This document shows, one piece after another, positions 3,907 through 8,746 of a stretch of DNA of 60,595 nucleotides. Origin of the DNA: an uncultured Candidatus Saccharibacteria bacterium (GTDB lineage Bacteria; Patescibacteriota; Saccharimonadia; Saccharimonadales; UBA7683); NCBI GenBank assembly GCA_964541305.1, contig CAZIPE010000004.1, positions 1 to 60,595 of the forward strand, in the 5' to 3' direction. The notes beneath the pieces were generated by a model, which worked only from the letters and a program-made list of their open reading frames with translations, was not told the origin of the DNA and did not search any database. How positions within the stretch are numbered: position 1 is the first letter of the stretch; each line of letters opens with the position of its first letter. The position numbers and the translations under genes are program-made.

Positions 3907-5325
3907 ATGAAGCAAAACTTTTCCTTCATCTATAAAATTGCGCTGATTGCCGGTGACGCATTCGGTTTGATACTTGGTTTTACACTCGCGTATATTTTGC
4001 GCGTTTCACTTGACCCACGACCCATCTCCACGCCCGTGAAGGCACTTACCTATATATCGCTGATTATGATTCTTCTCCCTTTGTGGTTAGGTATATTCTA
4101 CCTACTCGGTTTATATAACAAGCGGGTGTATAGCAAAAGACCAAAAGAGGCCAGTCGACTGCTCGTAGGTGCCCTTTCGGGTGTACTGCTACTTGTGACA
4201 TTCGATTTCTTCTCACCTGAAGTGCTGTTTCCCGCTAAGCTTGTACCAATCTATGCCGTCCTCTCTTGCTTTATCGTTCTCTGGATTATAAGAACCCTCA
4301 TGCGCGCCTTGAGGCTTTCGCTTCATCATCACAACTATGGGGTGGTACGAGTTTTGCTTGTCGGAAACAGTGATGCAACGTACTACCTTGCAAAGTACCT
4401 CTACAAAAATATTCAATCTGGCTACAAAGTAGTCGGGGTGGTTGCCAATAAAAAATATGTTTTTGAGAAAATGTATGCAAAACAATTTCAGTCACTAAAT
4501 ACCGCAATAAGTTCTTGCAAACCCCATGCCATTATCCAGACAGATAGTACAGATTTAACAAAAGTCTACAACCTCGCAATTGAGAATCATTTAGATTATC
4601 AGTTTATCCCCAGCCATGAAGCACTCTTCACCGCCAAACATTCTGTTGAACTTCTCGGTGCCTTCCCGCTTATTAACGTATACACTACACCCCTCATTGG
4701 CTGGGGGCAGCTCGTGAAGCGAACCATGGATATTATTCTGAGTTCTCTGGCGCTCATCATAACCTCACCCATCATCGCTCTCATTGGACTTATCACGAAG
4801 ATAAGTGACCCAAGAAGCAAGGTTCTCTTTAAACAACCCCGATTAAGTCGATTCAAAAAGACGGTGAACATATACAAATTTCGTTCACATAAACGAGCCT
4901 ACAGCGGACTAAGCCCCGAGGAGGCATTTACTAAGATGGGCAAGCCAGGGCTTATCAAGAAGTACCGGGAAGATGGCGACTTCTTGAAAGATGATCCACG
5001 TATCACACGGCTTGGTCATATACTGCGCAGGACCTCTTTAGACGAGCTACCTCAACTTTTCAATGTACTGCGTGGGGATATTAGCTTGGTCGGGCCTCGG
5101 GCGTTAGTGCCTTCAGAGCTTGAAAACTATGAGTTCAAAAGCCTTATCCTGAGCGTGAAGTCGGGTCTTACTGGTCTTGCACAAATATCCGGTAGACGAG
5201 ATATTAGTTTTGAAGAACGACGCAAAATCGATATGTATTACGTCCAAAACTGGAGTGTCCTTCTTGATCTGCAAATTATTATACGAACCATCTTCATGGT
5301 CATCAGCGGGCGAGGAGCCCGCTGA
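3907..5325 (+). CDS. Polyprenyl glycosylphosphotransferase (WbaP/exopolysaccharide initiating sugar transferase)
   Basis: N-terminal TM bundle, a central nucleotide-binding-like domain and a C-terminal bacterial sugar transferase motif (DELPQLFNVLRGDISLVGPRA). Confidence 0.85.
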   Translation: MKQNFSFIYKIALIAGDAFGLILGFTLAYILRVSLDPRPISTPVKALTYISLIMILLPLWLGIFYLLGLYNKRVYSKRPKEASRLLVGALSGVLLLVTFDFFSPEVLFPAKLVPIYAVLSCFIVLWIIRTLMRALRLSLHHHNYGVVRVLLVGNSDATYYLAKYLYKNIQSGYKVVGVVANKKYVFEKMYAKQFQSLNTAISSCKPHAIIQTDSTDLTKVYNLAIENHLDYQFIPSHEALFTAKHSVELLGAFPLINVYTTPLIGWGQLVKRTMDIILSSLALIITSPIIALIGLITKISDPRSKVLFKQPRLSRFKKTVNIYKFRSHKRAYSGLSPEEAFTKMGKPGLIKKYREDGDFLKDDPRITRLGHILRRTSLDELPQLFNVLRGDISLVGPRALVPSELENYEFKSLILSVKSGLTGLAQISGRRDISFEERRKIDMYYVQNWSVLLDLQIIIRTIFMVISGRGAR

Positions 5326-5789
5326 TGGGGTGTGGGGATTGGTTACTAGTTAATGGGGTTCTAAATGACAAACAGTAAGGTGCAAAATTTCGAAGATTTA
5401 GATGCTTGGAAAAAAGCAATCGACTTGGCCGTTGAAATATACCGTATTACAAAATCCTTTCCAAAAGATGAACTTTTCTCCCTAACCAACCAAATGCGCC
5501 GGGCAGCAAGTTCAGTCTCCGCCAACATTGCCGAAGGTTGTGGCAGATATAATTATAAAGAGAAGTTACAGTTTTATAGAATATCAAATGGCTCACTACT
5601 TGAAGTAAAAAGCTTTTGTTATCTTGGTAACAGACTGGCTTACATAGACGATGCGAGCCTAAAATCGATTCTCGGTGTAATAGTATCGTGTCAAAAACTA
5701 ACAAGTGCTTTAATAAAAGCCATACGAGTAAACAATGAAGCAAAATAGAATAGCCACCCGAGTAACTAATAACCAATCCCCAATCCCCA
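5326..5789. repeat. IVS-like cassette: imperfect 27-nt inverted repeats bracketing the four-helix-bundle ORF
   Basis: The 5' arm at 5326..5352 is tggggtgtggggattggttactagtta. The reverse complement of the 3' arm at 5763..5789 is tggggattggggattggttattagtta, so 24 of 27 positions are complementary. The arms lie 12 nt before the ORF start and 14 nt after its stop. Confidence 0.6.
5365..5748 (+). CDS. Four-helix-bundle protein (23S rRNA intervening-sequence protein family)
   Basis: FEDLDAWKKAIDLAVEIYRITKSFPKDELFSLTNQMRRAASSVSANIAEG is the signature N-terminal half of this family. Size is about 125 aa. Confidence 0.8.
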   Translation: MTNSKVQNFEDLDAWKKAIDLAVEIYRITKSFPKDELFSLTNQMRRAASSVSANIAEGCGRYNYKEKLQFYRISNGSLLEVKSFCYLGNRLAYIDDASLKSILGVIVSCQKLTSALIKAIRVNNEAK

Positions 5790-6901
5790 GTTCGGCACAG
5801 CCGAAGGTGGCGATTGTAGCGGACTGGTTAGTTGGTGGGGGTGCCGAACGAGTGGTGTATGAGCTTCATAGTATGTTTCCTAAGGCGCCGATATATACTG
5901 CCCACTGTAACGAGTCTTCTCAGAAGATGTTTAAAAATGCTGAGATTCACGTCAGCTTTATGCAGAAGTTTCCGTTTAGTAAACTTCGTAAGTTCCTGCC
6001 AATACTTCGTCAACACTGGTTTGAGAACTTAGACTTAAAGCAGTACGATCTTATTATTTCAAGCTCCGGTGCTGAAGCCAAGGCAGTACGTTCTCGTCCC
6101 GATGCGGTGCATATCACCTACTGCCACTCGCCAACGCATTACTACTGGATTCGCTATGATGAATACATGAAGCACCCCGGTTTTGGCATACTTGACCCAC
6201 TGGCGCAAATTGGACTCAAACTACTCGTAAAACCAAATCGTCGCTGGGATTTCGGAGCGGCTCAGCATGCTAATTACGTGATTGCAAACTCAACCGAAGT
6301 ACAGAAGCGAATCGAAGAGTTTTATGATCGTGAATCGAAAGTTATTCATCCTCCCGTAGATACAAAGCGATTTCATTCAAAGTCATCATCCGTAGTGCGA
6401 TCTGGCTTTGTAGTGGTGGGTCGCCAAACACCGTATAAAAAAATCGACCTGGCAGTACGAGCCTGCACTTTGGCTGAGCTCCCACTTACGGTTATAGGAA
6501 ATGGTCCAGAGCATAAAAAACTACAGAAAATAGCCGGTTCGACCATCACCTTTTTAACCGATGTATCAGACGACAAAATAGCGGCTTACTTCCAGAATGC
6601 AGAGGCTTTTATTATGCCCAATGAAGATGATTTTGGTATAACACCTGTTGAGGCAATGAGCGCCGGTACGCCGGTTATTGCATACAAAGCAGGTGGCGCA
6701 CTCGACTACCTTATTCCCGGCACTACCGGTGAGTTTTTCTCAGAACAAACACCAGAAGCATTAGCACAGGTTCTGAAGAACTTTAAACCTGAAAAATATA
6801 ATCATCAGAAAATTGCACGCCATGCTGAAAACTTTTCAATTGAAGTGTTTCATAAAAAAATGGCTGATTTTATTCATCATGTAACAAAAAGGAGTGACTA
6901 A
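5735..6901 (+). CDS. Glycosyltransferase family 4 (GT-B)
   Basis: VAIVADWLVGGGAERV N-terminus and a C-terminal EDFGITPVEAMSAGTPVIA motif. The true start may be GTG 5807, just downstream of the inverted-repeat arm, rather than ATG 5735. Confidence 0.8.
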   Translation: MKQNRIATRVTNNQSPIPSSAQPKVAIVADWLVGGGAERVVYELHSMFPKAPIYTAHCNESSQKMFKNAEIHVSFMQKFPFSKLRKFLPILRQHWFENLDLKQYDLIISSSGAEAKAVRSRPDAVHITYCHSPTHYYWIRYDEYMKHPGFGILDPLAQIGLKLLVKPNRRWDFGAAQHANYVIANSTEVQKRIEEFYDRESKVIHPPVDTKRFHSKSSSVVRSGFVVVGRQTPYKKIDLAVRACTLAELPLTVIGNGPEHKKLQKIAGSTITFLTDVSDDKIAAYFQNAEAFIMPNEDDFGITPVEAMSAGTPVIAYKAGGALDYLIPGTTGEFFSEQTPEALAQVLKNFKPEKYNHQKIARHAENFSIEVFHKKMADFIHHVTKRSD

Positions 6902-8746
6902 ATGTGCGGAATAGTCGGATATATAGGTAATCAAGCGGCTAGTCCACTACTTTTAGATGGTCTTCGTACGCTTGAATATCGAGGGTATGATTCAGCTGGT
7001 GTTGCTCTACTCACTCGTGAGGATAATTCACAGGCTACTATTGAGACTATTAAAAGTGCTGGTCGGATTGGTCAGCTCGAACAACTGCTTAGTGATCGAC
7101 CAAACAACTCGGAGATGCTCGGTATTGGTCATACCCGCTGGGCAACGCATGGACCAGCCAGCACCACCAATTCTCACCCTCATAGTAGCAGCGATGGCTC
7201 TATATCTGTGGTGCATAACGGAATCATTGAAAACTACCAGGTTATAAAGAGCTTCTTACAAAAAGAAGGGTTTGAATTTGTATCTGAAACCGATACCGAA
7301 GTAATCCCCCAACTCATTTCCTATCACTTTAAAAAGTCGGGAGATATTGAAAAGGCCTTTGAAGATACCCTTAGTCAACTGGACGGCGCCTACGCCATTG
7401 TCATGATCAGCACCCACGCACCTGACACCTTATTTGCCGCTAAGCTCTCTAGTCCCCTGTTAATTGGTTTAAAAGATAAAGAGATTTTCCTCGCATCTGA
7501 TGCCAGTGCCCTTCCTCAGGGATTCAATAAGTTGATCTATCTAGAAGATTTTGAGATGGCTGTTATTAAAGACGGTGAGCCTCACCTTACAAACTTTAAA
7601 GAACATGTAGCTGTAGAAAAAGAGCCCGAGGATTTAACTGAATTCTCGCTACGTGCCAGCAAAGGAGATTTCGCTCACTACATGCTCAAAGAAATTCATG
7701 ATGCACCAGAAACGATCCGTGGTGCTACCGCAGGGAGAGTGCGCCTGAGCGATAAAACCGTAAAACTTGGTGGTCTTGAGTCGGTACTAAACCAACTTGA
7801 ACACATCGATCGAATAATAATTGTCGCCTGTGGAACATCGTATTATGCCGGTATGGTGGGTGAATACCTTATTGAAGAAATTGCCGGAATCCCCGTTGAA
7901 GTTCAGCTAGCCTCAGAATTCAAATACCGCAACGAGCCACTTTCAAGTAGTACCGCTGTGCTTGCCATTTCGCAATCTGGCGAAACAGCTGATACGATCG
8001 CAGCCCTAAAAAAAGTTGAAGATTACGGAATTTTACGTCTTGGTATCGTAAACGCACCCGGCTCAACTATTGCTCGCATGACCGATGCTGGCGTATATTG
8101 TCATGCCGGACCCGAACATTCGGTTGCCTCAACCAAAGCCTTTATTGCACAGGTTTCAATTCTAAATCTCATTGCTCTGCACCTTGCAGACTCATCAACA
8201 CCCTTATACATGCCGCTACTGGAAGAACTCTCTCACCTTGATGAAAAAGCACAGGCTATACTTGACCAAGCTGAGACAATTCAAACGATTGCGAAGAAAT
8301 ATGCGGGCATTCAAGACATCCTTTACATTGGTCGAGGCTACGGCTACCCGTCGGCTGTTGAGGGAGCACTTAAGCTAAAAGAGGTGTCGTACATTCATGC
8401 TGAAGGCTATGCAGCAGGTGAAATGAAGCACGGACCTCTTGCTATGATTGATGAGAACTTTCCTACCTTTGCTATTGCCACAGACGACGGACACTTAGAA
8501 AAAACTATTTCCAACATCGAAGAAATACATGCCCGAAAAGGACCCGTCATTGCCCTCATCGACTCAGTAAATGAGAACCTTGAAAATCTCGTGCGAGATA
8601 TTATTGTTGTCCCAAAGACACTCCCTCAAACCCAGCCAATTCTTAATGCCATTGCCTTGCAGTTGTTCGCGTATTACGTCGCGCTAGAAAAAGGTTTCGA
8701 TATCGATCAACCCAGAAACCTCGCAAAGTCTGTCACTGTCGAATAA
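6902..8746 (+). CDS. glmS: Glutamine--fructose-6-phosphate aminotransferase
   Basis: MCGIVGY N-terminal nucleophile, two SIS domains, and the protein ends ...AKSVTVE. Confidence 0.95.
   Translation: MCGIVGYIGNQAASPLLLDGLRTLEYRGYDSAGVALLTREDNSQATIETIKSAGRIGQLEQLLSDRPNNSEMLGIGHTRWATHGPASTTNSHPHSSSDGSISVVHNGIIENYQVIKSFLQKEGFEFVSETDTEVIPQLISYHFKKSGDIEKAFEDTLSQLDGAYAIVMISTHAPDTLFAAKLSSPLLIGLKDKEIFLASDASALPQGFNKLIYLEDFEMAVIKDGEPHLTNFKEHVAVEKEPEDLTEFSLRASKGDFAHYMLKEIHDAPETIRGATAGRVRLSDKTVKLGGLESVLNQLEHIDRIIIVACGTSYYAGMVGEYLIEEIAGIPVEVQLASEFKYRNEPLSSSTAVLAISQSGETADTIAALKKVEDYGILRLGIVNAPGSTIARMTDAGVYCHAGPEHSVASTKAFIAQVSILNLIALHLADSSTPLYMPLLEELSHLDEKAQAILDQAETIQTIAKKYAGIQDILYIGRGYGYPSAVEGALKLKEVSYIHAEGYAAGEMKHGPLAMIDENFPTFAIATDDGHLEKTISNIEEIHARKGPVIALIDSVNENLENLVRDIIVVPKTLPQTQPILNAIALQLFAYYVALEKGFDIDQPRNLAKSVTVE

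Follow-up and report, generated by a model that had tools for sequence, protein, structure and literature searches.

Some 23S rRNAs carry intervening sequences (IVSs) that hold an open reading frame (ORF), S23p, as described for helix 45 of Coxiella burnetii and for Leptospira (PMC4990558, and Ralph and McClelland 1993 as cited there). In the C. burnetii IVS, three GACAGAT heptamers precede this ORF, and it is at the first of them that RNase III cuts (PMC4990558). Here we describe a gene of the same protein family that lies instead in a glycan operon, within a 60,595-nucleotide (nt) stretch of DNA from an uncultured Candidatus Saccharibacteria bacterium. This whole stretch is called the window; coordinates are positions within it, on the + strand, unless another contig is named. 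The gene (5365..5748, +) encodes a four-helix-bundle (4HB) protein of 127 amino acids (aa) and is bracketed by two complementary arms of heptamers. It separates the gene for a WbaP-type polyprenyl-phosphate sugar phosphotransferase from that for a GT4 glycosyltransferase. The best explanation, which we consider fairly probable, is that the unit is a resident IVS-type cassette in what was a 0-nt junction of the coupled WbaP-GT4 operon, with translation relayed through the cassette.

The cassette resembles the rRNA IVSs in its PF05635 protein, the long closing stem of inverted flanks, the tandem heptamers next to the ORF, the lack of a promoter of its own, and its sporadic distribution; its size is about 464-474 nt, compared with 428 nt for the Coxiella IVS. 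It differs in its host, which is a protein-coding operon junction rather than a 23S rRNA helix (25 or 45). Furthermore, its flanks appear to be read by ribosomes, since an upstream ORF (uORF) crosses the 5' arm and GT4 seems to start inside the cassette. Excision by RNase III would, as far as the sequence alone can tell, be harmful here. Finally, the 4HB ORF is under purifying selection, whereas the Coxiella ORF is decaying.

Heptamers and the protein family have each been met elsewhere. G-rich heptameric arrays are described as GGGNATC in Xanthomonas, which has 70-75 convergent (inverted) array pairs, and as GGGGA(C/T)T in Nostoc (Rehm et al. 2015, PMC4692102); tandem heptanucleotide elements are also found in Geobacter metallireducens (PMC2700814). 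The 5' arm unit GGGGATT at the present locus is the Nostoc unit and, as in the Xanthomonas and Nostoc arrays, about four or five G-tract units stand between co-oriented genes. However, those two papers name no gene between paired arrays and read the arrays as G-quadruplex or regulatory elements, while here they are the arms of a cassette. Genes of the family, annotated 23S_rRNA_IVP, are likewise wedged tightly between two operon genes in cas operons, such as cmr3 and cmr2 (Zhang et al. 2013, PMC3936711). That study considered a possible Cas-associated function, and no inverted heptamer arrays or insertional origin are described there. Among non-rRNA settings, no description of a 4HB cassette with inverted heptamer arms was found in the literature, the coverage of which was incomplete.

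Two other classes of element invite comparison. The accessory protein Avd of diversity-generating retroelements (DGRs) belongs to a homologous four-helix-bundle fold family (PMC10053308), and the 4HB protein matches the Avd model NF033474 weakly; unlike the situation in DGRs, no reverse transcriptase and no template/variable repeats adjoin the gene. An assignment as Avd was rejected, given a score of 22.7 bits against an equivalog cut-off of 80 and the WbaP and GT4 neighbours. Miniature transposable elements with inverted repeats (MITEs), repetitive extragenic palindromic (REP) elements, and integron cassettes are, like the present unit, small, promoterless, repeat-bounded and intergenic, and the WbaP|GT4 site also takes toxin-antitoxin (TA) pairs. 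The 4HB cassettes differ from them in having no terminal sequence common to the copies, no target-site duplication, and neither a cognate transposase nor a RAYT or integrase. An integron cassette, moreover, carries a single attC, placed at the 3' end, while here two arms surround the ORF. An insertion sequence or MITE with terminal inverted repeats was also rejected, since there is no duplication, the five copies in the genome have five different arms, the arm is unique in the genome, and only the 4HB protein is encoded.

A widespread cassette with inverted heptamer arms

The assignment of the 127-aa ORF to the 23S rRNA IVS protein family, made in an earlier note on this DNA, is upheld by profile searches (PF05635, E 6e-35, 120.2 bits versus a cut-off of 33.8; TIGR02436, 112.7 bits versus 24). 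Sequence similarity to PDB entry 2GSC extends over residues 8-121 (E 2.5e-17); 2GSC was deposited with five chains and is described as a homopentamer (PMC4990558). The R-x3-S-x3-N-x2-E motif of the family (PMC3936711) is present in a stretch that reads QMRRAASSVSANIAEG, and Q43, R46, S50, N54, A56, E57, and G58 are invariant in a 13-sequence alignment. The insert encodes no ORF besides this one.

The 5' arm (5326..5359, +) follows the WbaP stop directly and consists of five heptamer units, TGGGGTG, TGGGGAT, TGGTTAC, TAGTTAA, and TGGGGTT. The 3' arm (5756..5789, +) reads ACCCGAG, TAACTAA, TAACCAA, TCCCCAA, and TCCCCA, so that the variant units run in mirrored order in the two arms. Direct reading of 5326..5352, tggggtgtggggattggttactagtta, and of 5763..5789, taactaataaccaatccccaatcccca, agrees with the anatomy first given for these 27-nt arms: 24 of 27 positions pair, the exceptions being a 2x2 internal loop and the C5346-A5769 mismatch, and the arms are placed 12 nt before the ATG at 5365 and 14 nt after the stop at 5748. 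A repeat search lengthens the pair to 34 nt (5326-5359 / 5756-5789) with 85% complementarity (29/34). Upon folding of 5300-5820, the arm stem is present in both the minimum-free-energy (MFE) and centroid structures (z = -3.55), and none of 100 shuffles folds as well. With ungapped scoring (+1/-2), the arm pair reaches 19; when two 120-nt flanks separated by 312 nt were placed at random in this genome 1500 times, the scores averaged 6.8, peaked at 11, and in no case reached 12. Besides its own partner, no further copy of the arm with up to three mismatches exists in the 870-kb genome, and consequently the arm is not a common intergenic motif. Tracts of G4 length in the 5' array number only three. 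An Rfam scan of the locus returned no match and no rRNA, and no promoter or terminator signal at the locus exceeded shuffles.

The design recurs. This genome has five PF05635 genes, located at rpsR|efp, between rpsP and a KH-domain gene (antisense), at ybaB|recR, downstream of a response-regulator gene (this copy being frameshifted), and at WbaP|GT4. All five are bracketed by inverted repeats, with scores of 11-19 against the null maximum of 11, and each uses a different heptamer and arm sequence. Relatives of this genome have 4HB genes with a like heptamer-armed design, at 0 to 9 copies per genome (41 relatives). In a broad set of 78 loci from more than 12 phyla, including Patescibacteria, Bacteroidota, Proteobacteria, Planctomycetota, Acidobacteriota, Verrucomicrobiota, and Nitrospirota, a lag of 7 is the best self-match period in 60 of 78 upstream and 61 of 78 downstream flanks (about 77%), but in just 47 of 538 control windows (9%). 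Roughly half of these cassettes (39/78) keep a significant inverted repeat, with a score of 12 or more. Where the heptamers are well defined, the left one is the reverse complement of the right at six or more of seven positions in 29 of 43 cassettes, versus 4.8% of permuted pairs; in most cassettes, the heptamers are not G-rich. These results show that the locus belongs to a widespread cassette type, in which a PF05635 gene is closed by inverted arrays of about five 7-nt units. The description of the locus as an IVS-like cassette in an mRNA is thereby borne out, given that ORF, heptamers, and stem are all shared with the Coxiella 23S IVS and that the architecture recurs in this genome, in its relatives, and across phyla. 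The frameshifted one of the five 4HB genes, split in two pieces at G000:C3:43613-43893 (G000 being the present genome), retains an 18-nt inverted repeat of TAGATCT-type heptamers and is a decaying cassette.

It could be argued that the arrays are simple-sequence repeats, made by chance or slippage and unrelated to the small gene. Heptamer arrays are indeed over-represented in bacteria and often intergenic (PMC4692102), and a few arrays of this genome lie away from 4HB genes. However, the null placements never reach the arm score, every 4HB gene of the genome is bracketed, the excess of lag 7 in the flanks over the controls is large, and the mirrored order of the variant units is left unaccounted for, so that this idea is hardly credible. 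A derivation of the arms from the target site, with the heptamer approximating the reverse complement of the GT4 VAI codons, is hinted at by several loci but was rejected as a general principle. In 70 downstream and 55 upstream arrays, the score for complementarity with the neighbouring flank outside the cassette barely exceeds that obtained with shuffled partners (4.79 versus 4.18), and a score of at least 8 is reached by 1.4% versus 0.9%.

The similarity of the heptamers is associated with that of the proteins (Mantel test, none of 2000 permutations as high). This raises the idea that the arrays are binding sites for a pentameric 4HB protein, one subunit per heptamer, and serve in autoregulation or in the packaging of RNA or DNA. 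The homologue Avd binds nucleic acid. In addition, each arm here has about five units, the homologue 2GSC has five chains and is taken to be a homopentamer, and, as discussed below, the arms seem to be kept by conservation of sequence rather than by compensation. On the other hand, the heptamers differ widely while the motif residues Q43, R46, S50, N54, and E57 do not vary, protein pairs that are 65-69% identical often share just 4 to 5 of 7 heptamer positions, and common descent can explain the association of protein with heptamer. Thus, a role of the arrays as binding sites seems unlikely.

Insertion at the WbaP|GT4 junction

The upstream host gene (3907..5325, +; stop TGA 5323-5325) is identified by PF02397 (E 1.5e-55) and by TIGR03025, with 326.7 bits, above its cut-off. 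WbaP adjoins GT4 in 30 of 30 Saccharimonadales loci examined. In 18 of these the junction is empty, with 6-89 nt, and the GT4 ATG mostly abuts or overlaps the WbaP stop and begins a leader of the form MKDxxxLK-VAIV. The closest relatives found, the Logan contigs L145 and L146 (GT4 89% and 87% identical in aa sequence, flanks 83-86% in nt, fully syntenic from Wzy to GlmS), are both empty: WbaP and GT4 overlap as TAATG, and the sequence reads ...AAG TAATGGAAGGTAAGAAAGT.... Relative to these empty alleles, blastn and a junction alignment place the insert at 5329..5802 (+), where 474 nt replace 7 nt (AAGGTAA), and the resemblance of the flanks to those of L145 holds up to about 10-15 nt from the junction. 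An empty-type junction also precedes GT4 in a metagenome unitig, the GT4 part of which has 3 differences in 498 positions (99.4% identity); as a near-identical empty allele this unitig is suggestive only, being one contig with a 61-nt overhang.

Among the GTDB relatives (G-numbers), eight filled junctions hold 4HB cassettes of three kinds: the type of this genome, also present in G006; an ATCAAAT-armed kind in G012 and G013; and, in G010 and G009, a divergent subfamily whose arms carry CATTTNN. Two further arm types occur at this junction in G026 and G033, and two other genomes have unrelated genes there. A tree of GT4 groups the present genome with the empty L145 as its sister (support 99/94); G006, which shares the cassette type of the present genome, is more distant. 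Well-supported branches of this tree, which is a gene tree of a locus prone to exchange, force at least seven changes of state, and sister genomes hold different cassette types. These comparisons show that the cassette arrived by insertion and that the junction is a hot spot with gain, loss, and swapping of cassettes and TA pairs. From G006, the cassette has diverged to 78% nt identity and the flanks to 69-71%. This similar divergence favours an old residence, with a later near-precise loss in L145 and L146. A recent import from a G006-like donor by homologous recombination was rejected, since the cassette is only 78% identical and no extended tract was found.

The junctions of G027 (L126) and G040 (L141) hold, by eye, a two-gene TA pair and a PIN-like toxin with its antitoxin, respectively. 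In G027, a CCACCTA x4 heptamer array and a junction hairpin survive and encode the N-terminus of GT4, which suggests that there a TA pair replaced an earlier 4HB gene.

Once in place, the cassette lineage has been inherited with the operon. Ten orthologous cassettes, with 4HB proteins 69-85% identical, all lie at WbaP|GT4. A cassette of this kind was expected beforehand to keep its arms around orthologous 4HB genes, and all ten do, as variations on GGGGAT / TGGTTAC / TAGTTAA and their complements. The 4HB protein is 85% identical to its G006 orthologue, while third positions of identical codons agree at 56% (GT4, 44%; WbaP, 47%), and 29 of 34 positions of the 5' arm are identical with synonymous sites near saturation. 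The high identity of protein and arms despite the low identity of third positions shows that both are under purifying selection. This does not extend to signs of pairing in the RNA. In 73 cassettes, the arms have no excess of sense-strand wobble, with 57 mismatches of the G:U type versus 82 of the A:C type, the latter being a wobble only in the antisense strand. Among nine orthologues, compensatory coevolution of the arms was not demonstrated, since a cassette's own arms pair no better than swapped ones (p = 0.14 for energy, 0.08 for Watson-Crick score). Complementarity thus appears to be kept by conserving both sequences rather than by compensation, and the stem, although a function for it would be compatible with these results, gains no positive support as a functional element.

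These findings raise the question of whether the arms act at the level of DNA, as terminal inverted repeats of a mobile element that may act as single-stranded DNA or a cruciform and is moved by a factor in trans, with the pairing in RNA incidental and the arms at this old site decaying or co-opted. Such an element would fit the filled and empty alleles among close relatives, the seven or more state changes at one junction with its three cassette types and two TA pairs, and the copy number of 0 to 9. It would also fit the finding that conserved operons hold inserts in both orientations (between rpsP and the KH-domain gene, the C5 copy is antisense), the missing RNA-type wobble bias, the fact that the inverted repeat is significant in only about half of the cassettes, and the association of protein with heptamer similarity. 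However, a mobilising enzyme (transposase or recombinase) was found neither within the cassettes nor next to them, the filled/empty boundary shows no recognisable target-site duplication at 83-86% flank identity, and no identical copies that would mark recent transposition were found in this genome. Furthermore, five copies with five different arms are unlike ends that are recognised by one enzyme, and the arms are conserved among orthologues far beyond the neutral expectation. A role of the arms in DNA is consequently possible, but we regard it as rather doubtful.

Proposed translation through the arms and the start of GT4

Each edge of the cassette has a local hairpin. The left one (5300..5328, +; 12 bp, CAUCAGCGGGC-GAGGA-GCCCGCUGAUG) holds the WbaP stop together with an ATG at 5325-5327. 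It has a predicted dG of -24 kcal/mol (z = -5.6), none of 200 shuffles is as stable, and in L145 and L146, the nearest empty alleles, it is weak or lacking. A stop and a restart ATG within a hairpin constitute the classic layout of termination-reinitiation coupling. From this ATG, which starts on the A of the WbaP stop (TGATG), a uORF of 17 codons (5325..5378, +), MGCGDWLLVNGVLNDKQ*, crosses the whole 5' arm; its stop, at 5376-5378, falls 11-13 nt into the 4HB ORF. In 8 of 10 orthologues, there is a corresponding uORF that encodes a related peptide (MG.GDWLLV...); these uORFs start -3 to +2 nt from the WbaP stop and end -1 to +16 nt from the 4HB ATG.

The right edge is arranged in a similar fashion around GT4 (5735..6901, +), which from ATG 5735 overlaps the 4HB ORF by 14 nt; the ATG is upstream of the 4HB stop (5746-5748), and codons 8-19 are the 3' arm. 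This arm has no stop in the GT4 frame and two stops in each other frame. Followed backwards from VAIV, the GT4 frame runs without a stop across the 3' arm as far as an ATG overlapping the 4HB stop; this holds for eight of eight filled junctions of GTDB relatives. Among nine orthologues, the frame is open in 9/9, versus 9/18 for the two alternative frames. The spacer that separates VAIV from the 4HB stop measures 52, 52, 52, 52, 55, 55, 58, 58, and 79 nt, always 3n+1 despite units of 7 nt. In L142 and L135, there is no ATG, GTG, or TTG at the VAIV position, and GT4 must therefore start within the cassette. The arrangement is not peculiar to this operon, since a long downstream ORF starts on the 4HB stop, most often as ATGA, in 26 of 108 cassettes of the broad set, and at least ten of these have the array inside the ORF. 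GT4 ends at 6901 and glmS begins with its ATG at 6902, directly adjacent (window 6898-6904); the operon is thus tightly coupled throughout, which fits a relay of translation.

The second hairpin (5781..5816, +) pairs the end of the insert with the first conserved codons of GT4, including GTG 5807. Its inner stem is 5791-5796/5800-5805 (UUCGGC-ACA-GCCGAA), and its outer pairs join 5781-5789 with 5808-5816. At filled sites, the first 9-14 nt of the conserved GT4 coding sequence (K-V-A-I-V; here GTGGCGATTG) pair with an inverted copy just upstream. The host codons vary by locus (GTTGCACTTGTGC, GGTTGCAATAGTAC, ACTGCGATTG, GTTGCCATAG), and the inverted copy matches its own host: the mean score is 7.56 with the own partner versus 5.17 with swapped partners, none of 20000 permutations is as high, and the 18 empty sites, which lack the hairpin, average 3.78. 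The mean dG is -13.4 at filled versus -8.0 at empty sites (p = 0.006). Such compensatory covariation indicates that the junction hairpin is functional, and it is predicted to bury GTG 5807.

These results bear on the earlier note's account of the locus, in which RNase III would excise the 4HB segment and could split or destabilise the WbaP-GT4 transcript, with GT4 made from GTG 5807 (VAIVADWL). The anatomy is that of the Coxiella IVS, for which excision by RNase III has been shown (PMC4990558). The stem is present in the MFE and centroid folds, and its z of -3.55 speaks for it. The genome encodes RNase III in a single gene (C5:22907-23290), a GTG is present at the VAIV position here and in most filled loci, and the hairpin at 5791-5805 could shield a processed 5' end. 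However, every filled locus conserves both the upstream ATG, which overlaps the 4HB stop, and a GT4 frame that stays open across the 3' arm; a VAIV start is lacking altogether in L142 and L135, and the spacers differ solely by multiples of three. In addition, the junction hairpin takes GTG 5807 into its base pairs, and the single Shine-Dalgarno-like run that this codon has, GAAGG, abuts it. The preference for GTG 5807 as the GT4 start is thus not sustained. Nor do the arms speak for a processed stem, given the lack of a G:U excess and the equal pairing of own and swapped arms. A cut in the stem would remove the GT4 start codon, and the proposed processing therefore fits the comparative data poorly. 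The apparent passage of ribosomes through both arms speaks against a simple excision at the RNA level. Taken together, the processing mechanism and the GTG start are weakened, and we consider constitutive excision improbable.

We favour instead a relay of translation through the resident cassette, the steps of which are suggested by reading frames and their conservation. In this model, the cassette has no promoter or terminator of its own and would be co-transcribed with the operon. The ribosome that ends WbaP would open the 12-bp hairpin and restart at ATG 5325, read the 17-codon uORF across the 5' arm, and stop beside the 4HB start. The 4HB ORF ends 11 nt after the GT4 ATG at 5735, and GT4 would then be read across the 3' arm and the junction hairpin. 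Thus, the two local hairpins would act as gates in a relay from WbaP to the uORF, 4HB, and GT4, and both 4HB and GT4 would be made solely from intact, actively translated RNA. The long-range stem would form solely on untranslated RNA and could there be a substrate of RNase III, which would abolish GT4 expression. If so, cleavage would be conditional at most rather than constitutive.

It should be noted that several points weigh against a resident, translated cassette. The long arm stem is the dominant predicted fold of 5300-5820, and efficient cleavage could still occur, in which case GT4 of this genome would be translated from GTG 5807. Two of the 10 orthologues, L154 and L156, lack the uORF (in L155, there is a 27-nt gap only). 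Gene calls place the start of the downstream gene 11-14 nt inside the 4HB ORF in the seven additional orthologous contigs long enough to show it (L149, L151-L156), but gene callers prefer the longest ORF, and little weight attaches to their consensus on the upstream ATG. Shared descent links the orthologues, and counts among them overstate independence. No RNA run holds the locus; a search for such runs gave only two unrelated metatranscriptomes, with a word share of 0.00. The missing target-site duplication and mobilising enzyme count here as well, and a fresh gain from an unsampled donor is the less favoured alternative to loss in L145 and L146.

A more speculative thought is that the cassette secures its own retention by capturing the translation start of the downstream gene, an addiction that would work by translational coupling and not by a toxin; we judge this rather unlikely. 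If it were true, one hairpin would lock the first conserved GT4 codons and the other the WbaP stop and restart, GT4 would be made only by ribosomes that had just read the uORF and the 4HB ORF, and any mutation that abolished translation of 4HB would have a polar effect on the glycan operon. The heptamer stem would then be a fail-safe that destroys untranslated RNA, and the strategy could be general for the quarter of cassettes in which a downstream start lies on the 4HB stop. The 23S rRNA IVSs with an S23p ORF have gone unexplained for 30 years, as has the excess of heptamer repeats in bacteria. The present locus joins the two in one cassette design, which is also found in ordinary operons of ultra-small genomes of the candidate phyla radiation (CPR), in which each base is at a premium. 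With about 520 nt, it offers a compact and conserved system in which to ask whether the arms work in RNA or in DNA, whether they are translated, and how the cassette is tied to downstream expression. For annotation, genes downstream of such cassettes can begin inside them, and N-termini may be encoded by repeats.

Other repeat-bracketed features of the genome

About 500 nt from the 4HB cassette of contig C17, at G000:C17:1683-2033 (L001), a 97-aa ORF (MRSYFVYILTNKPKGTLYIGITNDIERRGNEH...), assigned to the GIY-YIG type by motif only, is bracketed by a 26-nt inverted repeat, GTCATCCTGGACTTGTTTCAGGATCT / AGATCCTGAAGCAAGTTCAGGATGAC. The arms are not heptameric, and the score of 20 is the genome's highest at that spacing. 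This ORF may represent a second kind of hairpin-bracketed small-gene cassette. A 27-nt inverted repeat at G000:C1:67864-68200 (L148), GATTTGTACCTTACTAGGCTGACGGAA / TTCCGTCAGTCTAATATGGTACAAATC, encloses 283 nt with no convincing ORF; it adjoins a tRNA gene, and Rfam finds the tRNA only. The RNase III gene lies about 900 nt from the antisense 4HB cassette at C5:24208-24516 (rpsP / KH-domain gene), which is probably a coincidence. Finally, two heptamer arrays lie inside long ORFs with no 4HB gene nearby, TGGTAGA, TGGTAAA, TGGCAAA, TGGAAAA at C10:25554-25581 and CAACTAT, CAACTAC, CAACTAC at C5:66530-66557. These may be relic arms that were absorbed into coding sequence, as at GT4.

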